Origin: Lachnospiraceae bacterium
Lineage (GTDB): Bacteria; Bacillota; Clostridia; TANB77; CAG-508
Assembly: GCA_963621995.1 (NCBI GenBank)
Contig: CAVFFZ010000001.1
Span: forward strand, 134,522 to 198,521
DNA length: 64,000 nucleotides
Reading direction: 5' to 3'
The position numbers and the translations under genes were made by a program. The first letter of the stretch is position 1. Each line of letters opens with the position of its first letter. This document shows, piece after piece, positions 1 to 16,866 of this stretch. The notes under the pieces were generated by a model. The model did no database searches, was not told where the DNA came from, and saw nothing but the letters and a program-made list of their open reading frames with translations.

Positions 1-1
1 T

Positions 2-318
2 TTTGACTTAGTGCAACAAATACGAAAAAATAGACAACGACCCACTAGAACAGGAAGAAAAAGTATATTTCAAGGTAAAGTTTATTGTAATGATTGTAAA
101 GCAAAAAGGAAGAAAATGAATTAAAATCAAAAGTAGAAAAATTTACAAAATATTTATCGGAGATACACGATTTTCATAAAGGCGATGGTAAATATGAACG
201 TAAAATTGACATTTATTATAATGGTGTTGGAATAATTGGTGTTCCAACTACACCAGAAGATATGGAAGAATTATATCAAAAATATAAAAAACAAAAAGAA
301 TTTATAAAAGCATCATAA
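2..318 (+). pseudogene. Fragment resembling the C-terminal zinc-ribbon and coiled-coil region of a large serine recombinase. It reads ...GKVYCNDCKAKRKKMN then stops, and continues in the +1 frame to 318. It is 5'-truncated by the window edge and frameshifted.
   Basis: Frame 2 translation FDLVQQIRKNRQRPTRTGRKSIFQGKVYCNDCKAK resembles the first CxxC of a recombinase zinc ribbon. A stop at 122-124 is followed by an open +1 frame to 318. It lies tail-to-tail with the resolvase-domain ORF at 351-749. Confidence 0.3.
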
Positions 319-350
319 TTACAGCAAAATGGCGACTCCAGTAATTGTCC

Positions 351-752
<402 letters not shown>

Positions 753-922
753 TTATGAATAGAAAGGCAACTAAAAAAGTGCCACATAGCATAGTTTTAG
801 CTATTAGCACTTTTAGAGTTTTAATATTTATTATTACTATCTCTTTAATTCTCTTTTTATAACACAAATAAACCAATATAGTATAATTTTTAAAAAACTC
901 TAAAATGCTTTACCGCTCTATG

Positions 923-1270
<348 letters not shown>

Positions 1271-1562
1271 AAACGGTTTAAAGTTTTTGTGTTGCCAAAT
1301 TCTCATAATCTTGAAATTAAGTTATATCAAGTATTATAGAGAGTTCGACGAAAACTTGTCTTGGTGTGAACAGCGTAGTTATCTACAACTTCCTGGCTCT
1401 CATAACAATTGGTACAAATATCAATCAACTTCTGTAATTAATTTAGCATAAAAGTTATAAATTTTCAAGTAATTATTTGGAAAACATAAAAGAACTGTTA
1501 AAGTGTTAAAGACAAAGGAAAGGTACAAAGACACTTTACCTCTGATATCTCTTTTTCATCTA

Positions 1563-3248
1563 TTAGAACTCCTTTTTGCTTTTTATATAATCACTATATT
1601 TTTTTACAAGTATGTTATTTATTTTTTTCCAGAGTTTATATTTACACTTTTTCCTTGCAGGGCATTTCTTACAATTTGGACATTGTGGCGCTTTTATTTT
1701 CTTCAAAAACACATCCGTATTAAATACAATATAATTTACTTCGTTTATTTTTTTACTTTTAGATTTTTTACTAATTACATCTTTTAGCTCATTTAAATAA
1801 ATTTTTTCAAATTGGTCGATATCACTTTTTAATTTTTCATCTATGTATTCAATAGTTTCTTCATATCTTTTTAAGTTTATTAAATAAATAATAAAAACGT
1901 AAAAATAATCCAAAGCAAAATACTCACCTTTTATCAAGCAATTTATTCCCATCAAATTACTAGGTTTAATTAAATCCATATATTTTATATTTTTTGAACA
2001 TTCATAAAATATTTTCTCAAACTCTATATTTTCTTGTTTTTCAAATAGATTGAAATATATATTTTTAATTTTCTTCATATTAACAGAAATTCTTAGATTA
2101 ATTGGTTTAATAGTTTCTATTTCTGAAAAATTTGGAATATAAACCTTAAATGTGTTAAATCCCATCATTGAATAATCTTTAATATATATATTCATTTTAT
2201 TTTTCTTTGCAATCTCTAGGATAGTTTTTAATGCTTCCTTATTACCTTTTACATTCTTAAAAGGAAGCTCTTTTATATCTATTTCATTATCTACAAACAT
2301 GCTATTGGGATGAATACCAGCATTTGATGAATAACATTTCAACCAATTATTTTGTAAAAATTCTTCACCATATTCTTCTTTATATTTTTCATAACCATTA
2401 TTTATATTTTTCATCTTTGCTTCAATGTTTTCTTTTTTTAACCCTTGAAATGCTTCTGTAATACATCTTTGTAAGGCAATATTAAAATTTGGATCCGAAC
2501 CAACCGTAAATAAATATTTTGTGTTTCCTTTAAGTAGCATAAGACCAACAACAGGGAATTTACCACCTAATGAGCAATCTTTTATTTTATATTCAAATCC
2601 CATGTTTTTCAACTCTCTTAATTGCTCACTTATCGGATACTGTTCTGAGTTTTTTATCATAATATTTTTTACTTTTATTTCTTCAAACATTATTTTTTTA
2701 TAACAATATCTTTCAAATATTTCGCAAATTCCTTGTACTAATGCTTCTTCCTTTGAGTTTCCTGAGCAAAGACCATTAGAATGCGTTAAAAAATTAATTA
2801 ATCTTATTGGTAAATCTTCTTTTTCATTATTTATTATATTTTCAAACGATGTATAATATCTATACTTATCATTATATTTTATTAAGTCATTTAATGAATT
2901 CACCTCAATAAATTCAGAAAACTTATTGTAAAATTCATTATGTTCAAGATATTTTTCATCTTTATAAATTAACATATCCTCTTTATTTAAAAATGTTGAT
3001 TTTAACAAGAAATTTGCTTGCAATCTTTCCATAAATTCTGCATATGCACTTGCTAACGCATATTCTTTGGTTATGCCTTTACCATTTGTTCCAATTTCTT
3101 TTATTTCTTTTAATTCCACCCTAGTTGAATAAAATGAATTATTAATATTAATAATTTCTTTTTCTACTACGTTAATTTCAAACTTTTTTAATATTTTTTT
3201 TATTTTTTTTACTGTTTCTTCTGGTTTACATTCTTTTCTATTATACAT
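1563..3248 (-). CDS. ycaO: YcaO-domain protein, E. coli YcaO-like, standalone and non-TOMM type
   Basis: NGKGITKEYALASAYAEFMERL, SNGLCSGNSKEEALVQGICEIFERY and DCSLGGKFPVVGLML match the conserved blocks of E. coli YcaO (CFTNGKGATKKAALASALGEYFERL; SNGMSAGNTRNEARVQGLSEVFERY; DGSLGGQYPVICVVL). Confidence 0.8.
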   Translation of the reverse strand: MYNRKECKPEETVKKIKKILKKFEINVVEKEIININNSFYSTRVELKEIKEIGTNGKGITKEYALASAYAEFMERLQANFLLKSTFLNKEDMLIYKDEKYLEHNEFYNKFSEFIEVNSLNDLIKYNDKYRYYTSFENIINNEKEDLPIRLINFLTHSNGLCSGNSKEEALVQGICEIFERYCYKKIMFEEIKVKNIMIKNSEQYPISEQLRELKNMGFEYKIKDCSLGGKFPVVGLMLLKGNTKYLFTVGSDPNFNIALQRCITEAFQGLKKENIEAKMKNINNGYEKYKEEYGEEFLQNNWLKCYSSNAGIHPNSMFVDNEIDIKELPFKNVKGNKEALKTILEIAKKNKMNIYIKDYSMMGFNTFKVYIPNFSEIETIKPINLRISVNMKKIKNIYFNLFEKQENIEFEKIFYECSKNIKYMDLIKPSNLMGINCLIKGEYFALDYFYVFIIYLINLKRYEETIEYIDEKLKSDIDQFEKIYLNELKDVISKKSKSKKINEVNYIVFNTDVFLKKIKAPQCPNCKKCPARKKCKYKLWKKINNILVKKYSDYIKSKKEF

Positions 3249-3265
3249 CTTTTAACTCTTCCCTT

Positions 3266-3302
3266 TATAAAAATAAGAGAAGCCTATTCAATTAGACTTC
3301 TC
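3266..3302 (-). terminator. Intrinsic terminator-like hairpin (GAGAAGTCTAATTGAATAGGCTTCTC plus T-run) between the small ORF and ycaO
   Basis: 8-bp stem followed by TTATTTTTAT on the minus strand, 18 nt upstream of the ycaO ATG. Confidence 0.45.
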
Positions 3303-3311
3303 ATGTTTTAC

Positions 3312-3383
3312 TTAGTCTTGGCAATAGTTTCCGCCTAATTCTCTAATCATTGTTTTGTCATTTGCCTTTTCATTAATGACCAT
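3312..3383 (-). CDS. Unannotated 23-codon ORF MVINEKANDKTMIRELGGNYCQD. It is a candidate precursor-like peptide with an ELGG motif followed by a short Cys-containing tail.
   Basis: Read directly from the minus strand between the PEP-utilising gene stop (3397) and the terminator/ycaO. There is no strong Shine-Dalgarno sequence, so translational coupling to the upstream gene is possible. Confidence 0.3.
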   Translation of the reverse strand: MVINEKANDKTMIRELGGNYCQD

Positions 3384-3396
3384 TAATGGAGACTTT

Positions 3397-5193
3397 TTAC
3401 TTTTCAAAATCTTCTTTATAGCTTTTATCATCCTTAATCACCTCCTTTTCTTTTTTTTTTGTTTTTTCATATATTCTACTTGAACATACTTCACCTGTAG
3501 TGCCATTTACATAGATTTCATTTTCGTCTCGCAAAGCTTTTAAAGCCTTCCTCCCAACTCCAGTTACACAAGGAATTCCTAATTCTCTAGCAATAATAGC
3601 TGAATGGCATAACATTCCTCCTACAGCTGTAACCAAACCAGATGATCTAGACATAATATCTAGCCAATCAGGATCTGTAAACATTGATATTAATATATCT
3701 CCATCATTCCATTTTTCTATATCTTTTAAATTTCTATAATAAGCTGATTTTCCTATTACTTCTCCTGTTGATGCTGGAGAACCTACAAAGATTTCTTCAT
3801 CAGAATTTGTTAAAGTTTTATTTTTCTCCATAGAAACTTCTCTTGTAACAGGTCTGTATTGCAATAATATCAATTCTCCATCTATAACACACCACTCCAT
3901 ATCAGCCGTGTCTCCATTAAACTTAGCTAGTGCGTTTTGAATATCTAATAATTGCTTTCCTATATAATCGTTAGTTTTTATTCCATCTTGTGTACCATTA
4001 GTTCTATTCCATTCTTCTCTTATTGGAGTCTCTTTTCCAGAAACTAATTTTTCGCCATTTCCTTTTTTCCATTCTAAAATACCTTTATCTTCACTTTGTC
4101 CTATCCAAACTCCTGATATTTCTGGCTCAATAAATTCTTGTATTATAACATTCATATTTGGTTGTTGTAAGTTATTTATTTCAATATATTTTTTTACCCT
4201 ATCATTCTTTACAGATTGCTTTACATCTCTTACTCTATCTATAATATTTTTCTTTTCAACATTTAAATATGAATCAAACATTCCAGCAAAAGAGTGTATT
4301 CCACCATCTTCTGCATTAGCAGAACTTCTAACAGCATATTTTTTATTTTCATCAAGTAAATTTTTAATTTCATTATCTTCTATTTCAACATAATAAGGTA
4401 TAACATAAGTTTTAGGTATCTTAATTTCACTTGCTCTTAATTTTGCCAATCCCAATGCTTTTCCACCTATCATATCTTTCAATTCGTCTTCCAAACCTGA
4501 TTCATAAAGCTTTGCCAAATATTCTATTGGTACAATTTTCATTTTTTTCAAATCTTCTTTTGCTCTTTTTACTAGTGTTTTTTTATGTATTAACATTAGG
4601 TTTTGATCTGGTTCATCTATATATTCTAATTCTAATGGATAAAGAGGTCTAATTCGTTTCATAGAATAAAGTCTTTGTTCATCTTGCCATTTTTTCATTA
4701 CCAAATACTTTTTCATTTCTTCATCATTAGGTAATTGTAGATTCTGTTCTTTTAATATCGTTTTTCCATCGACTGATAAATATGCTCTATCTATCTTTTT
4801 AACAATATCTAGATAATCTTTTCCATATTTCTTTTTTATATCTTCTATTATTTTTTCACTAAATGAACTATTTTCATTTAGTGCTTCTACTAAGCAAAAA
4901 TACGCCAAACCTCGTAATGAATAATTTACTTTCTTTTCATATTCTTCTGCCTTATCTCTCAATTTAAATTGTCCTTCTGCCTTTGCTCTCAGCATTTGAA
5001 ATAATTCGTCTATTTCTTTTGCAGTTCTTTCTTTGCTAACATACTCAATTATAGAATTTACTTCATTCATATAATCACTATCATGTATAGCTTCCATTAA
5101 ATTTCTGAAATAAAATGTTTCAGCATCTTTTGTTATAAAGTTGTCCACTTTTTCTTTAAAAAGTTTAAAATCCTCTACACTAACTTCTCTCAT
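3397..5193 (-). CDS. PEP-utilising enzyme family protein of PEP synthase/rifampicin-phosphotransferase-like architecture. It has an ATP-grasp PEP/pyruvate-binding module plus a C-terminal phospho-His swivel domain, with a ~220-aa unknown N-terminal region.
   Basis: GGKALGLAKL (PPDK_N-type nucleotide-binding loop) and TAVGGMLCHSAIIARELGIPCVTGV (PEP-utilising mobile-domain His motif). Confidence 0.7.
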   Translation of the reverse strand: MREVSVEDFKLFKEKVDNFITKDAETFYFRNLMEAIHDSDYMNEVNSIIEYVSKERTAKEIDELFQMLRAKAEGQFKLRDKAEEYEKKVNYSLRGLAYFCLVEALNENSSFSEKIIEDIKKKYGKDYLDIVKKIDRAYLSVDGKTILKEQNLQLPNDEEMKKYLVMKKWQDEQRLYSMKRIRPLYPLELEYIDEPDQNLMLIHKKTLVKRAKEDLKKMKIVPIEYLAKLYESGLEDELKDMIGGKALGLAKLRASEIKIPKTYVIPYYVEIEDNEIKNLLDENKKYAVRSSANAEDGGIHSFAGMFDSYLNVEKKNIIDRVRDVKQSVKNDRVKKYIEINNLQQPNMNVIIQEFIEPEISGVWIGQSEDKGILEWKKGNGEKLVSGKETPIREEWNRTNGTQDGIKTNDYIGKQLLDIQNALAKFNGDTADMEWCVIDGELILLQYRPVTREVSMEKNKTLTNSDEEIFVGSPASTGEVIGKSAYYRNLKDIEKWNDGDILISMFTDPDWLDIMSRSSGLVTAVGGMLCHSAIIARELGIPCVTGVGRKALKALRDENEIYVNGTTGEVCSSRIYEKTKKKEKEVIKDDKSYKEDFEK

Positions 5194-5206
5194 ACTTTCC
5201 TCCTAA

Positions 5207-6478
5207 TTATATATCAATTATTTTATCTCTTTTTAATGCAATTAACAATTCCTTTGTTTCATTATAAAGTTTAGGTTTAATTTTTGCAATATATTCTCCT
5301 GTATAATTTCCATCAATAATTTTTAATATATTTAAAGTTGCTTTATTACATTGCCTTAAAGGATGTGCTATTAAAATATAACGATTATATTTTTCTTTTC
5401 TCACATTTTTTATTTTTAATTTTAATTTTTTGTTTTTTATTTCATTCCATATTTGGATTTCATTTTTTTCTAATAACTCATCGCAGGATTCTTTCCAAAA
5501 TTTGCCACTTAATTCTGCTTTGCACCCTCCTCTACATTTTAATAATTCATTACAGTTTTTGCATCTTAATGGTAACCAGCTCATTTTTTGAAATTTTTTA
5601 TTTTCTCTACATTTCCATATTTTTTCAAATTTATCATTTTTCATATTTCCCAAAACAAAATTTGAGCTTGCACAAATCTTAACATCTCCATTAGCCTCTA
5701 TAGCACAAAATTTATAGCCTGCTCCGCAACCATGGCATAAATACCTGTACTTATCTTCTAATTGGCAAAAAGCAATACAATTACTTATTTTAATATCAAA
5801 GCCTTCATTATTTAGTTGATTTACTATTTCAATCATATTTTTCAAATTATCCTTTGTGTAGTTTTTTCCATTTCCGATATAATTTAGTCGTGCAACTGTT
5901 AGTTTCCAATTGTATTTTTCACACAATGTTGCTAGAGACTTTATATTATTATATTCTGTGTTTTCTGGAACAGTAGTACAATTTATATTTATTGATATGT
6001 TTTTAAAATCTTCTTCCACATATTTTAACCCATTAATAATTTGTTTGTAGCAATCCTTTTGAGAAAGTTTATTATGTGTTTTTTCGTTTCCATGTATAGA
6101 TACACCTAATGAATTAATATACTTTAATACTTTTCTTATATTTTCTTGTTCTAATAATACACCATTTGTAATTAGTATCTGATTAAATCCTAATTCATAT
6201 CCATACTCTAACAATTCTTCTAAGTATTTATATAATAATGGTTCGCCACCAGTATAATATATATTACATACACCTATTAATTTTAATTCTTTCAATATTT
6301 TTTTTGCAAGTTCAAAATCCATGTCTACACAACTATTATTTTCTGATTGAGAACAAAATTTACAGCTTAACATACATTTACTAGTTATTTTCATATATAC
6401 AGATATTGGATTTTTTAAGGTCTTTAAATTTATTTTTTTCCTTGTATCAACATTTCCATATTTATATATTTGATTCAT
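5207..6478 (-). CDS. Radical SAM enzyme with a C-terminal SPASM domain (peptide/protein-modifying maturase type). It has an ~80-aa C-terminal extension.
   Basis: CMLSCKFC (CxxxCxxC), GGEPLL, CHGCGAGYKFCAIEANGDVKICASS...CKNCNELLKCRGGCKA auxiliary cluster motifs. Confidence 0.8.
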   Translation of the reverse strand: MNQIYKYGNVDTRKKINLKTLKNPISVYMKITSKCMLSCKFCSQSENNSCVDMDFELAKKILKELKLIGVCNIYYTGGEPLLYKYLEELLEYGYELGFNQILITNGVLLEQENIRKVLKYINSLGVSIHGNEKTHNKLSQKDCYKQIINGLKYVEEDFKNISININCTTVPENTEYNNIKSLATLCEKYNWKLTVARLNYIGNGKNYTKDNLKNMIEIVNQLNNEGFDIKISNCIAFCQLEDKYRYLCHGCGAGYKFCAIEANGDVKICASSNFVLGNMKNDKFEKIWKCRENKKFQKMSWLPLRCKNCNELLKCRGGCKAELSGKFWKESCDELLEKNEIQIWNEIKNKKLKLKIKNVRKEKYNRYILIAHPLRQCNKATLNILKIIDGNYTGEYIAKIKPKLYNETKELLIALKRDKIIDI

Positions 6479-6714
6479 TATAATTACCTTTCTTTTTCAA
6501 TTTCTCTATGTGTGAGAATCTCATAAGTTTTATATTTTTTATCATATCTAATTCTTCTTTTGATATTTCATTATTTTTAGATAAGATCCTTAATTTTTGC
6601 AATATATATAACTCTCTTAAAATTTTTTCTTCATTGTCATCTGGCGAATGTATATAACTTAATGTATGAAATTTAAATATTCCTTCTCCACTTATTCTAG
6701 AACTTTTTCTAAGA

Positions 6715-6939
6715 TTACCGTGACTTATCCTTCAAAATAATTTCACTAGTTTTTGTTTTATCAGTGTTTATTTCTTTTACTTTTGCTAGATTTATTAACA
6801 AATATAATTTATCACTTTCACTATATTTCTCTCTAATTTCTTTTTTAAACTTTAGAATATCTTTTTCAAAATTTTCATTGCCATAAATGTTTTTTATTAA
6901 AACTACGATTGCTTCATTTCCAAATAAATAGTTTATCAT
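6715..6939 (-). CDS. Hypothetical 74-aa protein without Cys. A second frame is open across its 3' end into the start of the rSAM/SPASM gene.
   Basis: ORF track. An overlapping 89-codon open frame at 6462-6731 overlaps both this ORF and the downstream gene start. Confidence 0.35.
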   Translation of the reverse strand: MINYLFGNEAIVVLIKNIYGNENFEKDILKFKKEIREKYSESDKLYLLINLAKVKEINTDKTKTSEIILKDKSR

Positions 6940-7148
6940 ATTTGCTAAAGACTCAAAACTTGTTTCAAACTCACTATTCGTTTTTAGCTGATTTTCATAA
7001 AGTTTCTTGCATCAATTACTCCATATAATTTTATACTTCCTAATTTACTTCTTTGTATTTTATCATATATCTCTGGAAATTTTTTTTGACTTTCTGGTTT
7101 TAACATCAAATAATCATATTTTACCATAACACATTTTACTTATATATT

Positions 7149-7967
7149 TTAATAAAACTCTATTGCATTATATTCTGTAATAGCTCTTGAATCGTTAATT
7201 AAAATTATTCTTCCTTTCCATTTTTTATTTTTATTCAAAAATTGTTCAATTATTTTTTGTAAGTTTTCTTTACTTAATGGTTTTAAACTTTTATCTCTTC
7301 GTTTTTCACCACATAAATTGTTTATTTTTAAATAAATTCTATCTCCTAATTTATCTAAGATATCAGCAAATTTTTGCATATCTTCATAATTAAAATTATT
7401 ATACGCCACAAAAGTAACAATTGTTCTTACACTTTTATATTTAGATGATAAAGCAATAGTTTTTAAAACATTGTCCCAACATAAATTTGAATTTTTTATT
7501 CCTGCTGTAGTGATAGCTTCTTCTTTTGTTAATCCCTTTAAAGAAACTCCTAAAACATCAACTAAATTTTTCTTTAATAATTTTTCTACAATAGCTGGTA
7601 ACGAACCATTTGTATCTAAAAACACAATTCCATTATTTTGTTTAACAATCTGTAATTCCTCTTCTAAATAAATATTTAGACAAGGTTCTCCACCAGTAAA
7701 TTTAAACATATTTCCTTTTTTTATTAATTCTAATACTCTTAATCTAAAATCTTTAATTTCCATATAATTAGCTTTATGCTCTGTCTTCACTGCATATTTA
7801 CAAAATGCACAAGAAAAATTACACTTGCTATATGCCATTGCATGTGAATTTCTAGTATCGAATTTTTCACTTCTGTCTATGCACTTAGGAGCAAAAAAAT
7901 TTTCACCTATACTTACATCAATTTTCATTTCCTTCTCCATAATATTATTTTTTACAATAAAAGACAA
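7149..7967 (-). CDS. Small radical SAM protein (272 aa) with a PflA/QueE/NrdG-like core
   Basis: CNFSCAFC CxxxCxxC motif, FTGGEPCL, FLDTNGS. Confidence 0.7.
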   Translation of the reverse strand: MSFIVKNNIMEKEMKIDVSIGENFFAPKCIDRSEKFDTRNSHAMAYSKCNFSCAFCKYAVKTEHKANYMEIKDFRLRVLELIKKGNMFKFTGGEPCLNIYLEEELQIVKQNNGIVFLDTNGSLPAIVEKLLKKNLVDVLGVSLKGLTKEEAITTAGIKNSNLCWDNVLKTIALSSKYKSVRTIVTFVAYNNFNYEDMQKFADILDKLGDRIYLKINNLCGEKRRDKSLKPLSKENLQKIIEQFLNKNKKWKGRIILINDSRAITEYNAIEFY

Positions 7968-7984
7968 GGGGACATATCCACTTG

Positions 7985-8030
7985 TCTTTTGTTGTTTTAA
8001 CTATTATCATCGATTACTATATTAACATAA
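7985..8030 (-). terminator. Terminator hairpin AAAAGACAAGgggacatatccaCTTGTCTTTTGTTGTTTT downstream of the 8061-8861 gene
   Basis: 10-bp perfect stem plus T-rich tail on the minus strand. Confidence 0.5.
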
Positions 8031-8060
8031 TTTTATTGTATTGTCAATATTTTCAATTTA

Positions 8061-8861
8061 TTAGTTAATATCTCTCTTTTTGTTCTTATTCGCTTTGCTT
8101 TCATCTGGTATTATTACCTTTCTATAAATATTATTAGCTATTTCATTATCGTTGTCATCAAATATTCCGTTTCTATATAAATCATCACTAACAATTTTAT
8201 AATTTTCACTTTTATCATAGCAAATTTTTTTGTGAAAGTGGCTCATAATACTATGCCAAAAGCTTTTGAATCTCTGTAATTCTTGTTTTAGTTTTTCTTT
8301 TTCAGTTTGTAACTTGCCTATAATCTTATCTTTAGTAGATAGTTCCTTTTTTAAATTGCCGATTTCATTATCTTTTAGTCCTATTTCATATTTAAGTGAA
8401 CGGTTTTCCTTTTCTATTTCAAGGCTAGAATGTTCAAAATCTTTAATTGCCATATTTAAGCCATTTACATTTCTTACTGTCTGGGTTATATCTTTTACAT
8501 CTTCTGTATAATTTTTGATTTTTTGAACATCTTCATTTGAAATAAGCATATTGTTTTTCTTTAGTTTAGCAGGCTTTAAATTATTTAAAATCTTATCTAT
8601 ATCCTTACTTGTATTTTCAATCTCTCTAGTTTGAATATTAGCTTTTTCAAGTCTTTGTTCTTTTTGCCTTAGTTGTTTCTTAATTTTTCTATAATTAACC
8701 ATTTCATTAACATTGATGTCTTGATTTCTACCTTTTTGCTTTTCTTTTAGTCTAGTATTAACCTCATAAAACTTGTTATATGACTTAATACAAGCATTTC
8801 TCATTTTATCTTGTATTTCTGTTAAAGATGTTTTTGTAAATAGCTTAGTTTTCCCAACCAA
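8061..8861 (-). CDS. Hypothetical coiled-coil protein (266 aa) next to the integrase, possibly mobile-element associated
   Basis: Charged heptad-rich sequence with no recognisable catalytic motif. Confidence 0.4.
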   Translation of the reverse strand: MVGKTKLFTKTSLTEIQDKMRNACIKSYNKFYEVNTRLKEKQKGRNQDINVNEMVNYRKIKKQLRQKEQRLEKANIQTREIENTSKDIDKILNNLKPAKLKKNNMLISNEDVQKIKNYTEDVKDITQTVRNVNGLNMAIKDFEHSSLEIEKENRSLKYEIGLKDNEIGNLKKELSTKDKIIGKLQTEKEKLKQELQRFKSFWHSIMSHFHKKICYDKSENYKIVSDDLYRNGIFDDNDNEIANNIYRKVIIPDESKANKNKKRDIN

Positions 8862-9200
8862 TGAAATAATCGTTCTAAATAGCTTGTATCAAGGAATACA
8901 GGCTATCTTATTATTCTTCACTGTTTATATTTTTGAATAATTTTAAATATTTAATTTTCACTAGAGTACCAATGCTTTTCACGATTTTTCATTTTTCTTA
9001 ATTTTTAATTTTCTAAACTACCAACTAAACAAGCGACATTATTTTTTTCTATAATTAAATTTTGTTTATTTGATAAAGTGATTTTTTTAACAAATTCTTA
9101 TTTTTGAAAAATACGAAACTCATATATACTAGATATATCAATGACTTACGAGAAATAAATTTGTTTAGTTGATAGCTTGAAATTTGTAATAACTTAGTAA

Positions 9201-10424
9201 TTATCTTTCATTTTCAATGTTATTTTCTTTGTTTTTTTCACTTAATAAACTGTTTCCAATTAAATTCTCATTTAAGTAATATTGATTTACTTTGTCAATT
9301 TCTCTTTCCTTATATTTATCAAAAACTGACGTATATGTATTTAATGTAACACTGATGTTTTTATGACCCATTAATCTTTGAACTACTACTGAAGCGACAC
9401 CACTTTCAATACAACGTGTTCCAAAGGTATGCCTTAAAGAATGACTAGAAATATCAGTAACATTAAATTCTTTTTTGAAAATTCTTTTTAACTCATTATT
9501 TATAGTAGAACGTCTGCAATATTTACTATTATAAGGTTTAAAAAGTAGTTTTTCTTCATTATTTATTTGAGTGTCTGCAATTTTCATTTGTTCTATAATA
9601 TAAGGATAAAGAAAATACGGAATAGGCAATATTCTTTTTCCTGCATAAGTCTTTGTTTTATTTCCCATTATAATATTACCTTTTTCGTCTGTTGTTAATG
9701 TTCTATGAATATTTATCCTTTTATGTTGTAAGTCAATATCGTGTATTGTAAGTGCCAATGCTTCGCCAATTCTTAAACCTGTATACATTTGAATTAAAAA
9801 TACATTTCTATACTTAAATTCATTTATAGGTTTATCAATAAGAAAATTTGTAAATTGCTGTTGTTCTTTTACTGTTAATGCACGTACAATTTTATCTTCT
9901 TTATCACTTTTTGGTTGAATAACATTTGCCATAGGGTTTTGTGTTATATATCCCTTATTCATTGCAGTAGTAAAAGCCTGATTTAATTGTTGATATGCCT
10001 TTTCTATCATTGAATTACTTAAATGCTTTAGAGAGTTTAAGTATTCTTGTAATTCGTCTTGTTTTATTGTATCAATGTTTTTATTTCCAAGTGATAGTTT
10101 TTCTAATTGCTGTATTGAGTGCAAAGTACGTCCATATTGTGCTGGAGAAATTTGATTTGTATTATATTTTAAGTTTAAATTTTGCTTTAAAATCTCACAT
10201 AGTGGTATTCCGTTGTGTTCAATATATAATGGGTTTTCTTTTTGATACATAACAGTATCTAAATATCTTCTTGCATCTTCTTCGGTTTTAAAACTTTTAG
10301 TTTTTAACTGCAATTTTCCTGTCTTTATGACATACTCTCTATATTGTGCGTTCCAACATTTTCTTTGTTTATTAAAAAATACATATCCTTCACTACTTCC
10401 TTTTTCTGCCATATTACACACCAC
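9201..10424 (-). CDS. int: Site-specific tyrosine recombinase / phage-type integrase
   Basis: C-terminal HSLRHTFGTRCIESGVASVVVQRLMGHKNISVTLNTYTSV (R...HxxR...Y catalytic region) and RILPIP box. Confidence 0.85.
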   Translation of the reverse strand: MVCNMAEKGSSEGYVFFNKQRKCWNAQYREYVIKTGKLQLKTKSFKTEEDARRYLDTVMYQKENPLYIEHNGIPLCEILKQNLNLKYNTNQISPAQYGRTLHSIQQLEKLSLGNKNIDTIKQDELQEYLNSLKHLSNSMIEKAYQQLNQAFTTAMNKGYITQNPMANVIQPKSDKEDKIVRALTVKEQQQFTNFLIDKPINEFKYRNVFLIQMYTGLRIGEALALTIHDIDLQHKRINIHRTLTTDEKGNIIMGNKTKTYAGKRILPIPYFLYPYIIEQMKIADTQINNEEKLLFKPYNSKYCRRSTINNELKRIFKKEFNVTDISSHSLRHTFGTRCIESGVASVVVQRLMGHKNISVTLNTYTSVFDKYKEREIDKVNQYYLNENLIGNSLLSEKNKENNIENER

Positions 10425-10663
10425 CTTTTTTGTTCATTTTCCAAAGTAAGTATGCTGCCAAAGTAACAACTTTTCTTTTACCTAAAAGTACAATACGAGT
10501 ACTTTTGACATCTCTTAGATCCGTTTAACAAAATACAATATAATTGTAATATAATATAAATTTTTCAAAGTGCTCGTAAACATATAGCTTTTGACGAACA
10601 GCTATATACAATTAATTGGCTATATTATATCACGATTTCAAGAAATGTCAAATATTTACAAAT

Positions 10664-10945
10664 TTATATTTTTTTCAAATATTCTTCTAACTCTGATAAT
10701 TTTATCTTTTTAGATAAGTTTGAAATATACACATCATTTGAATAATTGAAAACTAAAAAAGTAATACTTTTAATAATCACTTTATGTGGCTCAATATATG
10801 TAAGATTAGTTTTTTCTAATTTCCTAATGCTACCATTTATAAAAGTAGGGGTAACTTTAGCAAATTCACATATAAATTCAAGTCTCTGTTTTAGACATTC
10901 TTCAAATTGTAATTCTTGTTTAATTATTTTCAATTTATACACCAT
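10664..10945 (-). CDS. Small conserved hypothetical protein, paralog B, transcribed immediately upstream of the integrase
   Basis: Alignable with the ORF at 923-1234 (INGSIRKLEKTNLTYIEPHKVIIKSITFLVFN...LSEL). Confidence 0.5.
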   Translation of the reverse strand: MVYKLKIIKQELQFEECLKQRLEFICEFAKVTPTFINGSIRKLEKTNLTYIEPHKVIIKSITFLVFNYSNDVYISNLSKKIKLSELEEYLKKI

Positions 10946-11059
10946 CCTTTCGTTTGGATGATTTTAATATTGTTTTTAGACAACAAAAAAATCAACCAGA
11001 TTTATTTTCTGATTGATTTTGTATCAATTCTGTTCTATTAGTTCGAACAGAAACGTCAT

Positions 11060-11145
11060 TGGTGGGCAGGGATGGATTCGAACCATCGTACTCGTATGAG
11101 AACAGATTTACAGTCTGCCGCCTTTAGCCACTCGGCCACCTACCC
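11060..11145 (-). tRNA. tRNA-Tyr (GUA), long variable arm, CCA encoded
   Basis: The reverse complement folds as GGGTAGG acceptor / GGCCGAGTGGCTAAAGGCGGCAGACTGTAAATCTG anticodon arm (GTA) / long variable arm / GGTTCGAATCC T-arm / CCCTGCCCACCA. Confidence 0.85.
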
Positions 11146-11172
11146 ATATATTAAATTGTATATAAATAAAAT

Positions 11173-11248
11173 GGTGCTCCCTCAAGGATTCGAACCTTGG
11201 ACCCACCGGTTATGAGCCGGTTGCTCTGACCAACTGAGCTAAGGGAGC
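11173..11248 (-). tRNA. tRNA-Met (CAU), elongator type with a G1-C72 pair; Ile2-lysidine not excluded
   Basis: Reverse complement: GCTCCCTTAGCTCAGTTGGTCAGAGCAACCGGCTCATAACCGGTGGGTCCAAGGTTCGAATCCTTGAGGGAGCACCA. Confidence 0.85.
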
Positions 11249-11268
11249 ATGTGTTTAACACAAGTTTG

Positions 11269-11297
11269 ATTATACAAAACTTTTAACTTGTTGTCAA
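11269..11297 (-). promoter_or_regulatory. Sigma-A type promoter for the tRNA-Met/tRNA-Tyr unit (TTGACA-17-TATAAT)
   Basis: The minus strand reads TTGACAacaagttaaaagttttgTATAATcaaacttgtgttaaacac directly upstream of the tRNA-Met 5' end. Confidence 0.6.
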
Positions 11298-11435
11298 TAG
11301 ATTATTTAAATTTTTTTATTTATTTTTTACTTTTTTTATTATAAACTAATTTTTTATTTTTATAATATTATAAAGTAGGTTAGAAACACTAAATCTCTAA
11401 CCTACTTTTGACATTCACTAATATTAAGATTTATA

Positions 11436-12329
11436 TTATCTTTGTTCTCCTTTACCTTCTGGTAATGCTGGAACATCTAATACAACTCTAATTTTGAAAG
11501 CATATCTAATAGCTCTACCTATTTTGCTTTCTTTAATTCTTTGCCATAAAGATGGTTTAACTTCAAATCTAGTTTCTTCTATGTATTGTTTATTTTCTTC
11601 TACTGCTGGTTCTTCTGCCATTTCTTCAATTTCTACTGTTTCTTCTTGTGGTGTTGGAATTAATTTTAATGCATCCGCAATTTCAATTCCAATATAGCTT
11701 AATGCTTTTGATCTATCTTCAATTCTTTCCATATCTATTTCTATATGTAAGTTTGATTCTAGATTTACAATTCTTGCATTTACTAATTTAACTGCATCTT
11801 GATAATTTTGAGATGTCTTTGTTCTTGCTTTTCCTATTATTTCTAATGTTTCTACTATATCTTCTGGTAAATTTTTAGAAGCTTCTTTAAATTCTTGTTT
11901 CCATCCGTCTTCTTTAGCTGTTGCTACTTCTAAAGCTTCTTTTAATTCTCCTGCTAATGCAATATTTGCTTCTCTTTGACGAATTAATTCTTCTATTTGT
12001 TTTGTATTTTCTTCAAATTGATTTGTAGCATATTCTACTAAGCCATAAGCAGCTTTATATACACTTGCTGGGAAATTCTTTTTCTTTGGATATTCCACCA
12101 AATAAGTTTTTATTGATTCTATTAAATCTTTAAAATATGTATCATCATCTAATTGGATAATTTGTTTTTTACTTTTTGGATTAATTAATTTTTGTACTTT
12201 ATCAATATTTGATAACATCTTTTCTTCTGTGATTACCATTCTCACATTTACTATGCCAGATCTAGACATTGTAAACTCCTCCTTTTTCCTACGTATTGCT
12301 ATATTATATGTTTTTCTACAAAAAAACAC
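11436..12329 (-). CDS. Hypothetical protein; the likely start is the internal MSRSGIV
   Basis: ORF track with a strong downstream hairpin terminator at 11370-11410. No family recognised. Confidence 0.4.
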   Translation of the reverse strand: MFFCRKTYNIAIRRKKEEFTMSRSGIVNVRMVITEEKMLSNIDKVQKLINPKSKKQIIQLDDDTYFKDLIESIKTYLVEYPKKKNFPASVYKAAYGLVEYATNQFEENTKQIEELIRQREANIALAGELKEALEVATAKEDGWKQEFKEASKNLPEDIVETLEIIGKARTKTSQNYQDAVKLVNARIVNLESNLHIEIDMERIEDRSKALSYIGIEIADALKLIPTPQEETVEIEEMAEEPAVEENKQYIEETRFEVKPSLWQRIKESKIGRAIRYAFKIRVVLDVPALPEGKGEQR

Positions 12330-12476
12330 AATAGGAATTATAATATTTTATAATTTAACTTCATTTTTATTTTAATACAATATATTACAATCTGTCAATA
12401 GCAAAATTGTTATTTCCGTAAATATTTTTTTAATTTTAGGAAATTTTTCCACATGCTATTTTTATAAAATATTAAT

Positions 12477-14345
12477 TTATTTATCTTTATTCATTTCCAC
12501 ATATCTTTTAATTTTCATTGTAGTTGTTTTTGCGAATTCATCTTTCTTTATTTCTAGTTTTTTTATTGCTTTATATGATGTTAATTTATGATTTACTTCT
12601 TTTATTTTTTCCCATATAATATCATGAATTTGTTCATCTGTTAGTTCACCTTTATGTTCTTTTTGAATTTCTTCTAGGTTTGGTATTACTTTTGCAGTAA
12701 TAATTAATTCTTTTTCTCCTTCAACTTCTTTTCCATATACCATACATTCTTTTATTTCTGGTATATCACCTAACATTAATTCTATTTCTTCTGGATAAAT
12801 ATTTTTTCCATTTTGAGTTACTATTACATTTTTTATTCTTCCTGTTATATATAGGAAACCATCTTTATCTAGGTAACCTACATCACCAGAATGGAACCAT
12901 CTATTTCCTTCTTCATCTGTTTCTATAACTTCATTTGTTGCTTTTTGGTCTTCATAATATCCAAGCATTAATGTTTCACTCTTTATTAATACTTCCCCTT
13001 CTCCTTTTTCGTTTGGATTATCTATTTTTAATTCTGCACAAACAACAGCTTTTCCAGCTGAACCTACCCTTGAATCATATTGTGGTGTAAGTGCTGCTAT
13101 AGGCGCAGTTTCTGTTAGACCATAGCCTTGAAGGAATATTATTCCTAAATCTTGCATCCATTTTCCTACTTTTGGATCTATTGGAGCTGCTGCTGAAACA
13201 ACAAATCTTAATTTTCCCCCTAGATTTTCATATATTTCTTTAAATACGGTTTTCTTTATATCTACTCCAACATTTTTTAATGCATTTGTTATTTGCATCA
13301 TTGAATTTACCATTGCTGTTTTTCCACTTTTATCTATTGTTTGATTTATTTTCTTGTAAAGGTTTTCTATTAATAAAGGAACTGCAAGTAATGCTGTTGG
13401 TTTTGTTTCTTTTAAGTTAGGTACTATATATTTTAGTCCTTGACACACTGCAATAGAAGAACCTCTTGCAACTGGAAGCAAGAAACCTATTGTAGATTCA
13501 TATGTATGGTGTAAAGGTAATATAGAAAAGAATCTATCTGTTTCATGTATTTTTACATATGGATTTACTGCATTAATATTTTGAGCTAAATTTTTATTAC
13601 ATATCATTACACCTTTTGAGTTAGATGTAGTTCCCGAAGTAAATATTAACACTTTAAATTCTTCTGGATCTATTTCTATTTTAGTAAAAGAGTTATCGCC
13701 TTTTTCTATTATTTTCTTTCCTTGTTCAACAATTGTATTAAATCCTACTTCTCTACCAACTAATTTATCATCTGAATTCATTTGTATAAAGTATTTTACT
13801 TGTGGAAGTTTATCTTCAACTTTTCTTATTACATCTGATTTTTTAGTAGAATATATAACTGCTGTTGCATTAGCACGTTTTATAACATTTTCTATTTCAT
13901 TTGTTGGCAATTCTTTATCAACAGGTACTGCAATTCCAACACCACAAAGCATAGCCATGTATGAAACATACCAATGATATGTGTTTTCACCAATAATAAC
14001 TACTCTTTCATTTTTTAGATTATATTTTTTAGTTAGCGCTGTTCCTAATGCTATTACATCATTTGCAAATTCCTTATATGTAATTTTTGTAAATTCTCCC
14101 TTTGGTGTAAATTTTTCCAACATAAATATATTATCTGCGTATTTTTCTCTTGCCATATCAAATATTTCTTTTATTGTTTTATAATCTGTTGTCTCATATC
14201 CTCTTTGTTTTCTTTTTTGTGCTATTACTTGTTTTTTTTGCAATCTTTCATAGTCTAATTTTACTTCTTCAATTTTTTCTACATCTTTCATTTTTATTTT
14301 TTTAAATTTAAAATTTGGTATTTTAAAATCATTCAATATTCTCAT
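12477..14345 (-). CDS. fadD: Long-chain fatty-acid--CoA ligase (AMP-dependent synthetase)
   Basis: LIFTSGTTSNSKGV AMP-binding motif, YGLTE and GDVGY motifs. Confidence 0.8.
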   Translation of the reverse strand: MRILNDFKIPNFKFKKIKMKDVEKIEEVKLDYERLQKKQVIAQKRKQRGYETTDYKTIKEIFDMAREKYADNIFMLEKFTPKGEFTKITYKEFANDVIALGTALTKKYNLKNERVVIIGENTYHWYVSYMAMLCGVGIAVPVDKELPTNEIENVIKRANATAVIYSTKKSDVIRKVEDKLPQVKYFIQMNSDDKLVGREVGFNTIVEQGKKIIEKGDNSFTKIEIDPEEFKVLIFTSGTTSNSKGVMICNKNLAQNINAVNPYVKIHETDRFFSILPLHHTYESTIGFLLPVARGSSIAVCQGLKYIVPNLKETKPTALLAVPLLIENLYKKINQTIDKSGKTAMVNSMMQITNALKNVGVDIKKTVFKEIYENLGGKLRFVVSAAAPIDPKVGKWMQDLGIIFLQGYGLTETAPIAALTPQYDSRVGSAGKAVVCAELKIDNPNEKGEGEVLIKSETLMLGYYEDQKATNEVIETDEEGNRWFHSGDVGYLDKDGFLYITGRIKNVIVTQNGKNIYPEEIELMLGDIPEIKECMVYGKEVEGEKELIITAKVIPNLEEIQKEHKGELTDEQIHDIIWEKIKEVNHKLTSYKAIKKLEIKKDEFAKTTTMKIKRYVEMNKDK

Positions 14346-15102: not shown

Positions 15103-16113
15103 TTATCCTTGTCTCTTTCCATCTAATGTATCTAAGTTATCAAGTGCTTTTCCTGTTCCTAAAGCAACACATGACACTGCATCTTGTGCTATCATTACAT
15201 TTATTCCTGTTTTTTCTTGTAACAATTTATCTAGTCCATCAACTAAACAACCTCCACCTGTCATATATATTCCTCTATCACTAATATCTGCTGCAAGTTC
15301 TGGTGGTGTTTTTTCTAACACTGAATGAACTGCATCTACTATCATCATTGCAGGTTCCAATAGTGCTTCAAGCATTTCACTTGAATGTATAGTTATTGTT
15401 TTTGGAAGCCCAGTTAGTAAGTCTCTTCCTCTTACTTCCATTTCTGTATCTTGTATTTTAGGATACACACAACCTACATTTATTTTTAAATCTTCTGCTG
15501 TTCTTTCTCCTATCATAACATTATGTTTTTTCTTTATATATTTCACAATATGCTCATCAAATTTATCTCCTGCCACTTTTAAAGAAGTACTAACAACGCT
15601 ACCACCTAAAGAAATGACTGCTATATCTGTTGTTCCTCCACCAATATCTACTACCATATTTCCGCATGGTTTTGAAATATCTATTCCTGCACCTATAGCT
15701 GCTGCTATTGGTTCTTCTATTAAATATACTTTTCTTGCCCCTGCTTGTGATGCTGCATCTATTACAGCCTTTTTTTCTACCTCTGTTACTCTTGAAGGAA
15801 TACATATCATTATTCTTGGTGCAAATACAAACTTGCCACATACTTTGCTTATAAAATATTTTAACATTTTTTCAGTTTCTGTATAGCTCGAAATAACTCC
15901 TTCTCTTAAAGGTCTTGTTGCTACTATATTTCCTGGGGTTCTTCCAAGCATTCTTCTTGCTTCTTTTCCTACTGCTAATACATTTCCTGTATTATTGTCT
16001 ACTGCTACTACTGATGGTTCACGAAGCACTATTCCTTTTCCTTTTACATATGCTATTACAGTTGCTGTTCCTAAATCTATTCCTATATCTTGTCCCAATC
16101 CAAACATTTGCAT
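15103..16113 (-). CDS. mreB: Rod shape-determining actin homologue MreB/Mbl
   Basis: DIGIDLGTATVIAYVKGKGIVLREPSVVAV and DIGGGTTDIAVISLGG motifs. Confidence 0.9.
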   Translation of the reverse strand: MQMFGLGQDIGIDLGTATVIAYVKGKGIVLREPSVVAVDNNTGNVLAVGKEARRMLGRTPGNIVATRPLREGVISSYTETEKMLKYFISKVCGKFVFAPRIMICIPSRVTEVEKKAVIDAASQAGARKVYLIEEPIAAAIGAGIDISKPCGNMVVDIGGGTTDIAVISLGGSVVSTSLKVAGDKFDEHIVKYIKKKHNVMIGERTAEDLKINVGCVYPKIQDTEMEVRGRDLLTGLPKTITIHSSEMLEALLEPAMMIVDAVHSVLEKTPPELAADISDRGIYMTGGGCLVDGLDKLLQEKTGINVMIAQDAVSCVALGTGKALDNLDTLDGKRQG

Positions 16114-16386
16114 CTTCCTTTCAGTATATATTGTCCACCTTTATTTCTTTTTATTACAAATCTGTTACAATTATATTACGTTTTTTTTGAAATAGCAATC
16201 CTTTTTTTTAATTTCGTATTTTTTAATAGTATATTGTATATTTTTCTTATATAAAAATAAGAATTTGTATATAATTTAATTATACAAACTCTAAATTTTA
16301 TATTTTCGCGTTAAGAACTTTATAATATATCTATGCTATGTAAAATGAAAAACTTTAAAAAATCCTATTTTTTATTTAAATAAACT

Positions 16387-16866
16387 CTAAACAAAATAAA
16401 GTAATATTAATGCTGATATCATTGCAGCTAAACCTCTTTCTGTATCAGATAGTTTATCTTCCTCTTTTACATTATTCTCTTCAAGTATTTTTTCATCTAC
16501 TATATTTATAACAGCTTTATCTACTCTATTATAATTAAAATGAACTTCAAATTCTTTTTCATCTTTTGCATCTATTTTATCTATTTTTATATATTTTGTT
16601 CCCATTAAAACATTATGCTTAGAATAACATGCTATTTCTATGTACTTATTTTCTATACTCGTTTCTGTATTATTTGTAACTTTTACTTTTGCTTTTCCAT
16701 TTATAGACGTTGCTTCTACTTTTGCTTCTACTGGAATTGTTGTTAATATTTCCACACTTTTATATTTATATGTTGTATTTATTGCAATATATATCATAAC
16801 TTGTGAAAATATAAAAAACAAAACTACTAATAACAAATAGATAAAAAATGTTTTCATTCTTGCCAT
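16387..16866 (-). CDS. Hypothetical membrane-anchored protein
   Basis: N-terminal TM helix, then a beta-rich domain. Confidence 0.4.
   Translation of the reverse strand: MARMKTFFIYLLLVVLFFIFSQVMIYIAINTTYKYKSVEILTTIPVEAKVEATSINGKAKVKVTNNTETSIENKYIEIACYSKHNVLMGTKYIKIDKIDAKDEKEFEVHFNYNRVDKAVINIVDEKILEENNVKEEDKLSDTERGLAAMISALILLYFV

Follow-up and report, generated by a model that had tools for sequence, protein, structure and literature searches.

The Escherichia coli YcaO protein (EcYcaO) thioamidates Met82 of ribosomal protein uL16 in vitro when supplied with only ATP, Mg and sulfide and with no partner protein such as TfuA (Rice et al. 2026, PMC13063428). The enzyme is strongly acidic, with an isoelectric point (pI) of 4.4, and non-acidic members of its similarity group are found in putative clusters for peptides that are made on ribosomes and modified after translation (RiPPs) (PMC13063428). 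In the azoline-forming thiazole/oxazole-modified microcins and linear azole-containing peptides (TOMM/LAP), the cyanobactins, the YcaO–TfuA thioamitides and thiovarsolins, and bottromycin, a leader-plus-core precursor is encoded next to the YcaO, which in bottromycin stands alone. The other described systems that come closest to the one presented here are rifampin phosphotransferase (RPH) and PigC, the SPASM-type radical S-adenosylmethionine (SAM) maturases and the pathways to pyrroloquinoline quinone (PQQ) and mycofactocin. Here, we analyse an operon within a 64,000-nucleotide stretch of DNA from a Lachnospiraceae bacterium (contig CAVFFZ010000001.1; the whole stretch is referred to as the window), in which a YcaO, a dikinase-type phosphotransferase and two radical SAM enzymes are encoded together with a 39-residue peptide. 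The closest known systems have only single parts in common with it. We consider it likely that the segment is a RiPP-type operon, the cargo of a tRNA-targeting integrative island, and that its peptide is modified after translation. The cluster is a candidate for a new RiPP class.

The window is AT-rich, with a G+C content of about 25%. The same locus is present in a spore-forming Clostridia genome (assembly GCA_963660865.1, contig CAVKZG010000002.1), and the metagenome-assembled genome (MAG) 'Clostridium sp. CAG:245' is among the close relatives. Related loci from other genomes are designated below by L numbers. The four enzymes, placed on the minus strand by an initial annotation made from the sequence alone, were confirmed there by domain matches in Pfam and NCBIfam. 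On this strand the small radical SAM gene is followed by a decayed gene for a 223-residue protein, the SPASM radical SAM gene, the dikinase gene, the 39-residue precursor, a hairpin and the YcaO gene, and a single promoter-like site lies upstream of the operon:

8019–8047, minus strand: upstream of the operon, a promoter-like site with an extended TG (TTGACA-17-TAATAT), its sequence kept in L002
7959–7990, minus strand: in the 5′ leader, a stable hairpin (-23.6 kcal/mol, z = -5.0) with a U-run behind it; L002 has it too
7149–7967, minus strand: small radical SAM enzyme, 272 amino acids when read from TTG (Pfam and NCBIfam), with CxxxCxxC and no auxiliary domain
6480–7127, minus strand: pseudogene of a 221–223-residue protein to which no function is assigned (tblastn, three frames)
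5207–6478, minus strand: radical SAM/SPASM peptide maturase (PF04055, PF13186, AlphaFold2 model)
3397–5193, minus strand: dikinase-type phosphotransferase (PPDK_N plus swivel domain, AlphaFold2 model)
3312–3431, minus strand: candidate precursor peptide of 39 amino acids, MIKAIKKILKSKKSPLMVINEKANDKTMIRELGGNYCQD, with a ribosome-binding site and homologues in about 31 other loci
3277–3302, minus strand: hairpin and U-run directly 3′ of the precursor stop codon (z = -3.0)
1563–3248, minus strand: E. coli-type YcaO, pI 9.0 (PF02624), with ATP/Mg motifs and a C-terminal CPxC..C..C

The hairpin at 7959–7990, between the promoter-like site and the first gene, is possibly a leader attenuator. For the small radical SAM enzyme the likelier start is the ATG at 7928, just after GGAGAAGGAA, which leaves a protein of 259 residues.

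In a scan with one genome per species, about 50 proteins are related to the dikinase over its full length, the helical N-domain included. Almost all of them come from gut-derived MAGs of Clostridia, Bacilli, Erysipelotrichaceae and related groups, and none was found in plasmid and phage collections. A YcaO accompanies the dikinase in 28 of 50 other dikinase loci, a radical SAM/SPASM enzyme in about 36 and a homologous peptide in about 31; the first two counts are derived from clustering of open reading frames (ORFs), and several of the loci without partner genes are cut by contig ends. The association of dikinase, YcaO, SPASM enzyme and peptide is far beyond chance. Co-conserved at identities of about 40% in some 30 genomes, the genes are, as had been proposed, a single functional unit and not a row of housekeeping neighbours.

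Three architectures can be distinguished. Type A, to which the window belongs, contains the small radical SAM enzyme, (the 223-residue protein), the SPASM enzyme, the dikinase, a peptide ending in CQD and the YcaO. Type B consists of two SPASM enzymes, a peptide ending in CSDxC, a HisC/CobD-like pyridoxal phosphate (PLP) enzyme, a B12-type radical SAM enzyme, the dikinase and the YcaO, to which type C adds a TehB-like methyltransferase, an S51 (PepE-like) peptidase and sometimes a GNAT acetyltransferase (an example of type B/C is L018, 3988–13800). Comparison of the three leaves the SPASM enzyme, dikinase, YcaO and peptide as the shared core. The dN/dS values of the window enzymes relative to L002 and L005 are between 0.14 and 0.29, indicating purifying selection. 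For the small radical SAM enzyme they are 0.25–0.29, and its orthologues in the L032 and L089 clusters are 54–61% identical. A likeness to the daptides, in which the C-terminus undergoes oxidative decarboxylation, transamination and methylation, is restricted to the sister types B and C. These have a class I/II PLP aminotransferase and a SAM methyltransferase (a weak daptide_MTase match of 38.6 bits), and the additional C-terminal 'xC' of their peptides is reminiscent of daptide-style remodelling. The PLP enzyme and the methyltransferase are, however, absent from the window cluster, and daptide pathways lack a YcaO, a dikinase and SPASM enzymes.

The 39-residue peptide encoded between the dikinase and YcaO genes is very probably the substrate of the pathway. 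The initial annotation had called the substrate unknown and overlooked this ORF. It has AAAAGGAGG upstream, with a strong AGGAGG ribosome-binding site, and it overlaps the dikinase stop codon, sharing 35 nt with the 3′ end of that gene. Using a profile built from the peptide and a few relatives, homologues were picked up next to the dikinase or YcaO in the other loci, all of which start with the basic motif M-I/V-x-x-I/L-K-K-h-F/L-K/R. The conserved leader motif reads MIKxIKKhhK, and the pI of the leader is 10.2. The C-termini occur in three forms, LGGNYCQD (window), E(L/C)GGNYCSDxC and SMAG(N/H)G(N/D)CSD(C/Q/A)C, which correspond to a family-wide core G-x-x-x-C-[Q/S/R]-D: G(-4), C(0) and D(+2) are conserved in all three cluster types, and in the window the invariant Asp is the C-terminal residue. 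In the last eight codons only synonymous differences are seen relative to L006 and L032, where the cluster DNA is 65–70% identical. In most type C loci the last 25 or so residues of the precursor hardly vary, and every type C locus keeps the core motif; type C dikinases are 46–100% identical to one another. Although their sequences have diverged, other type A loci and type C loci have hairpins equivalent to that at 3277–3302, a candidate attenuator or terminator, 3′ of their peptide genes. A short ORF beside modifying enzymes, with a leader/core organization under selection, is what is generally seen in RiPP clusters. A phmmer search of 1.84 billion representatives returned only two close relatives, the peptide being too short for remote detection, and none of three precursor variants matched an NCBIfam family.

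The YcaO (PF02624, 150 bits) has as its only relatives in the PDB EcYcaO and the archaeal MJ1094 and a chain in entry 6CI7, the latter two of which we take to be enzymes of McrA-glycine thioamidation. The closest solved relative is EcYcaO (PDB entry 4Q84), with E = 3.5e-31 over residues 5–381. The ATP/Mg motifs of the two align, both contain the motifs TNGKG, SAxxExxER and SNGxxxGNxxEAxxQGxxExxER, and both are of the long E. coli-type form without an E1-like or TfuA partner. In NCBIfam the model YcaO_for_S12 (194 bits) ranks well above those for McrA thioamidation (83 bits) and SagD (60 bits), although none reaches its cut-off. This ranking and the PDB relatives agree with the initial assignment to the E. 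coli type and not to the azoline-forming TOMM type. The SagD model TIGR03604 has a cut-off of 219 bits, and no E1-like, Ocin-ThiF or FMN dehydrogenase partner is present among the island ORFs. TfuA domains were likewise absent from all ORFs of the island and of those related clusters that were examined, in agreement with the initial statement that neither an E1-like nor a TfuA partner is encoded. Compared with the known YcaO RiPPs, the window cluster lacks a cyclodehydratase partner, an FMN dehydrogenase and TfuA; its YcaO, which should use ATP to activate a backbone amide, stands alone as that of bottromycin does. The partners of its YcaO are instead the dikinase and SPASM radical SAM enzymes, and no description of these together with a YcaO was found.

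The window YcaO also departs from EcYcaO. Its score against the equivalog NF040716 is 194 bits versus a cut-off of 700, and its pI is 9.04 versus 4.4 (PMC13063428), so that neither value is that of a uL16 thioamidase, for which a strongly acidic pI complementary to uL16 is expected. The basic pI instead fits the non-acidic members of the EcYcaO group in putative RiPP clusters (PMC13063428). Furthermore, the gene adjoins a small precursor ORF, lies on a mobile element and encodes an additional C-terminal Cys4 motif, P-x-C-P-x-C-x2-C-x5/6-C-(K/R)-Y-K-x-W (window 1563–1700), which is conserved in types A and B and is replaced in type C by an N-terminal extension of 100–150 residues. Cys225 and Cys262 are invariant in the family, whereas EcYcaO has Gly and Thr at these positions. 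More distant EcYcaO-like YcaOs (33–34% identity; Anaerocolumna, 3.7-Mb contig) belong to other clusters that lack a dikinase and are uninformative here. These two clusters are located at L083 1183–13454 and L081 1–11797. One of them contains three radical SAM genes, one of them B12-binding, a U32 peptidase, a major facilitator superfamily transporter and a 42-residue peptide ending in FWAWA. The other (Anaerocolumna sp. MB42-C2) contains a peptidyl carrier protein, an AMP-ligase, a carbamoyltransferase and a decarboxylase.

The SPASM domain recognized in the initial annotation was borne out. The protein matches PF04055 with 65.5 bits and PF13186 with 32.2 bits (cut-off 21.5) and contains the canonical CX2CX5CX3C. 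Ten cysteines (Cys35, Cys39, Cys42, Cys238, Cys251, Cys269, Cys306, Cys309, Cys315 and Cys319) are invariant in 26 sequences, and the AlphaFold2 model (pLDDT 93) is closest in fold to SuiB, SkfB, CteB and anSME. The family is a tight one, with 99 matches at E <= 1e-20. As in SuiB, CteB, SkfB, PqqE, MftC and PapB, a radical SAM core is combined with a full SPASM domain, and a leader-binding domain of the RiPP recognition element (RRE) type is predicted. This candidate RRE-like domain is the C-terminus (residues ~350–423), which adopts a β-β-β-α-α-α topology at residues 359–417 of the model, and it is on this predicted topology that the assignment rests. In the known maturases the equivalent domain is N-terminal or a separate protein. 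The best peptide-modifying matches in NCBIfam are PqqE and MftC, and no equivalog cut-off is reached. The PQQ and mycofactocin pathways resemble the window family in their short precursor, the C-terminal motif of which is invariant, in their SPASM enzyme and in the peptidases that some genomes have nearby. The window cluster differs from them in having a YcaO and a dikinase, in lacking homologues of PqqB, PqqC, MftD and MftE, and in its mobile context.

The enzyme first described as a phosphoenolpyruvate (PEP)-utilizing swivel protein indeed matches PPDK_N (PF01326, 107 bits) and the swivel or mobile domain (PF00391, 74 bits). It is acidic (pI 5.4) and consists of a helical N-domain (residues 1–230), an ATP-grasp domain and a swivel phosphohistidine domain with His530, which is invariant in 15 sequences within the motif GG(M/F/L)LCH(S/T/A)AI. 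The chain ends about 30 residues past the swivel domain and no C-terminal PEP/pyruvate TIM barrel (PF02896) is present; the enzyme is hence not a PEP synthase or pyruvate phosphate dikinase (PPDK) but a swivel phosphotransferase in the general sense. In its AlphaFold2 model (pLDDT 85) the closest folds are PPDK and the Listeria RPH, and the best PDB matches by sequence and fold are 5FBS and 5HV1 (RPH group) and PPDK 1KBL. RPH and PigC/RedH/HapC likewise combine an ATP-grasp and a swivel His domain without a PEP/pyruvate domain, and since the catalytic His motif is conserved, relay of the β-phosphoryl group of ATP through His is to be expected. In contrast to the central rifampin-binding domain of RPH, the helical putative substrate domain is N-terminal and not inserted. 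No equivalog cut-off in NCBIfam is reached, the scores being far below those of RPH (NF041857; 142 versus 999) and PigC (136 versus 1300), and the presumed substrate is, unlike in that group, a ribosomal peptide.

Between the two radical SAM genes, the three short ORFs of 47, 74 and 46 residues at 6462–7127 correspond to a single protein of 221–223 residues, matched by tblastn at 44–47% identity in three frames and across a stop codon. The initial count of six genes including small ORFs thus does not stand, and these ORFs were rejected as precursor peptides or accessory proteins, being frameshifted pieces of one gene. The intact protein is encoded at the same place in L085/L086 and L089/L090 (L085 7030–7695; L089 7031–7702). 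The pseudogene region differs from that of the 93%-identical L005 by indels of 1, 13, 23, 1, 1 and 2 nt, is mostly deleted in L002, and in L032 the two genes flanking this position are only 60 nt apart. Weak homologues occur in L007 (14452–15219) and L032 (14042–14569). The protein has a faint likeness to nucleoside diphosphate kinase (NDK; Pfam E = 0.14, LHCPD versus IHGSD in NDK). It could be a phosphohistidine partner of the dikinase.

The operon is part of an island, of which the remaining features are as follows:

1362–1366, minus strand: distal end of the island, ...GTTCACACCA, where homology to L002, L003 and L005 ends
8061–8861, minus strand: coiled-coil protein of 266 amino acids, an island gene outside the conserved cluster
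9201–10424, minus strand: tyrosine integrase of the island (PF00589, 102 bits)
10664–10945, minus strand: 93-residue island protein, a paralogue of the 103-residue ORF at 923–1234
11060–11145, minus strand: tRNA-Tyr, the 3′ end of which is the proximal island boundary

The integrase and tRNA-Tyr, both noted initially and both confirmed, are about 640 bp apart. Homology to L002, L003 and L005 ends exactly at 1362, just past ...GTTCACACCA, and the other end of the homology is at ~8067 (L002) or 8451 (L005), with unrelated flanks beyond. These boundary comparisons define an island from 1362 to 11059 that comprises the 93-residue ORF, the integrase, the coiled-coil protein and the operon. The same cargo is found 3′ of tRNA-Leu(CAG) in L002 (1130–1214), of tRNA-Leu(TAG) in L004 (8199–8281; the cargo copy there is degraded) and of tRNA-Tyr in the window, all three being tRNAs with a long variable arm (class II). 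Such differing placement in relatives is that of a tRNA-targeting island. Over about 80 nt past the tRNA the window is homologous to L002, and in the stretch that adjoins them L004 matches as well. No long direct repeat of the tRNA-Tyr 3′ end was found; the tRNA end and the distal end have only ...CACCA in common, and in L002 the corresponding match is 11/17. A 66%-identical type A cluster lies between a MobC/relaxase module and large serine recombinases in L089 and L090. Horizontal transfer of the cluster is well supported. The description of the cluster as acquired cargo between an integrase with tRNA-Tyr and recombinase remnants therefore holds as regards the differing flanks and tRNAs, but the recombinase remnant (351–749) lies outside the island.

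This remnant is a truncated serine-recombinase N-domain (PF00239, E = 1.7e-26) located beyond the island end after the 103-residue ORF at 923–1234. Just outside the island end, AGACAAGTTTTCGTCGAACTCTCTATAA resembles the island start after tRNA-Tyr, and judging from these features positions 1–1361 look like a second, degraded island in tandem. An Rfam scan of positions 1–12500 returned nothing besides two tRNAs.

In the pathway that we propose, the leader would dock onto the enzymes, and two candidate sites for this are the C-terminal domain of the SPASM enzyme, which is RRE-like, and the helical N-domain of the dikinase, which is acidic. The YcaO would then use ATP to phosphorylate a backbone amide oxygen of the core, leading to a thioamide or a thiazoline. 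A thioamide would fit the closest characterized relatives of this YcaO (EcYcaO and the archaeal McrA enzymes), whereas a thiazoline would be located at the invariant Cys. The SPASM enzyme would abstract a hydrogen atom from the core to give a crosslink or an oxidation, and a carbon link from Cys to Asp or Tyr is a natural candidate. The dikinase would relay the β-phosphate of ATP via His530 to an oxygen of the peptide, the likeliest target being a carboxylate of the invariant Asp, which would become activated for a further bond-forming step. The product may be a modified peptide of small size or a piece cut out of it. L050 (9965–11855) and L028 (9998–11860) encode a dikinase and a peptide together without a YcaO. 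The L050 peptide ends in HMGGSYGTDIC, where GG.Y..D is retained and the otherwise invariant Cys is replaced by Gly. This locus, reduced to a dikinase and a peptide without the Cys, is a single case that weakly hints at the proposed division of labour; its other neighbours are uninformative.

The RiPP reading is supported by the catalytic motifs of the radical SAM, SPASM, YcaO and dikinase proteins, all of which are intact. The copy in L004 (9876–13274), although 98% identical, has decayed through a 466-bp deletion of the YcaO N-terminus and truncation of the SPASM gene, and its core has undergone a Gly-to-Asp change (DGNYCQD). We count the loss of the YcaO N-terminus and of the core glycine in the same copy in favour of this reading. 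Several observations weigh on the other side. Every chemical step outlined above is taken from homology. No protease, transporter or immunity gene is present within the island, and searches of the SPASM C-terminus, the dikinase N-domain and the YcaO C-domain with Pfam and by sequence gave no significant match to an RRE or another known domain. With a conserved component, the 223-residue protein, reduced to a pseudogene, the ancestral product may no longer be made by the window copy. Some 20 homologues of the dikinase are without a YcaO or a recognizable peptide, so the dikinase family is not exclusive to this pathway. To our knowledge no PPDK-type dikinase acts on a peptide, which makes the role of the dikinase the weakest link of the proposal.

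The peptide could also be a scaffold only, releasing a cofactor or signal from its invariant C-terminal residues in the manner of PQQ and mycofactocin rather than becoming a peptide antibiotic. This we regard as possible although rather doubtful, and it is a refinement of the RiPP reading that does not contradict it. It would account for a core that is more conserved than the enzymes, as in type C, and agrees with PqqE and MftC being the best peptide-modifying matches of the SPASM enzyme. Exopeptidases of families S51, M18 and M20, which include Asp-specific enzymes, adjoin clusters elsewhere, types B and C are chromosomal in uncultured gut Bacilli, and the lack of a transporter or immunity gene in the window island points in the same direction. 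On the other hand, the type A cluster of the window rides on mobile elements, a setting seen more often for traits of competition or accessory function than for a core cofactor; the window also lacks a dedicated peptidase, and no cofactor-dependent enzyme was seen nearby. The frameshifted 223-residue gene, together with further decay in close relatives (the YcaO deletion and truncated SPASM gene of L004 and the short YcaO ORF of L006), raises the question of whether the window copy is a non-functional remnant. This is unlikely given that the four enzymes and the peptide are full length, the core is intact, the dN/dS values are low (0.14–0.29) and the promoter and hairpins are retained. Moreover, L002 has dropped the pseudogene and kept everything else, and L032 has no 223-residue gene at this position.

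A role in defence against phages or plasmids, with a viperin-like radical SAM enzyme and nucleotide or phosphotransfer enzymes making modified nucleotides, is very improbable. The cluster does lie on mobile elements, both radical SAM proteins match the pVip models of PADLOC (73.6 and 43.3 bits), viperins are among the PDB matches and the neighbouring decayed gene is faintly NDK-like. However, the pVip likeness is that of a generic radical SAM core: the NCBIfam model of prokaryotic viperins (NF038283) gives 57.7 and 38.5 bits for the two proteins versus a cut-off of 180. PADLOC has no match for the YcaO or the dikinase, and a SPASM domain, an RRE-like domain, a conserved precursor and a YcaO are hallmarks of peptide maturation. 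That the YcaO acts on a protein of the ribosome or another housekeeping protein, in analogy to EcYcaO and uL16, and that the other genes are unrelated neighbours, is hardly credible. EcYcaO is its best match in both NCBIfam and the PDB, yet the score of 194 bits against a cut-off of 700 and the pI of 9.0 against 4.4 (PMC13063428) speak against such a function. The gene also lies on a mobile island that is absent from or moved in relatives, and it is strictly co-conserved with the peptide, dikinase and SPASM enzyme. This explanation is already largely refuted.

We thus return to the RiPP reading. No curated Pfam family or NCBIfam equivalog for the peptide was found, nor one by which the enzymes would be defined, and full-text searches of the literature gave no YcaO–dikinase–radical SAM peptide pathway, Figure S33 of PMC13063428 (an image of putative RiPP clusters with EcYcaO-like enzymes) being outside this check. 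The initial view that the combination of enzymes belongs to no described RiPP class is in keeping with both results. Taken to its full extent, the proposal would be that of a new RiPP class in which, for the first time, a PPDK-type dikinase acts on a ribosomal peptide together with a TfuA-independent E. coli-type YcaO and a SPASM enzyme. The C-terminal Tyr-Cys-Gln-Asp would be converted into a small sulfur heterocycle or thioamide, perhaps a cofactor or signal of uncultured gut Bacilli and Clostridia. With all of its parts combined this version is tentative, and we think it rather unlikely to hold in full. The system itself, if confirmed, would be a further RiPP class and would bring into peptide maturation a kind of enzyme not previously met there, the His-swivel dikinase. 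It would also provide the E. coli-type YcaO clade, to which only uL16 thioamidation has been assigned as a function (in 2026), with a natural substrate that is a peptide, and it would imply a conserved, uncharacterized metabolite of abundant and largely uncultured Bacillota of the human and animal gut. With four enzymes and a 39-residue peptide, the system is small enough to be directly testable with synthetic genes.

Two neighbours of related clusters may be mentioned. A GHKL protein with an HATPase_c_5 domain (L007 5643–6401) adjoins a type B cluster. Domains of this kind are characteristic of AgrC-like peptide-sensing kinases, which hints at a possible signalling role of the product in some hosts. 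In L085, a gene of the MbnB/TglH/ChrH family (DUF692; 15787–16614) lies between mutS and mutL, just downstream of the type A cluster.

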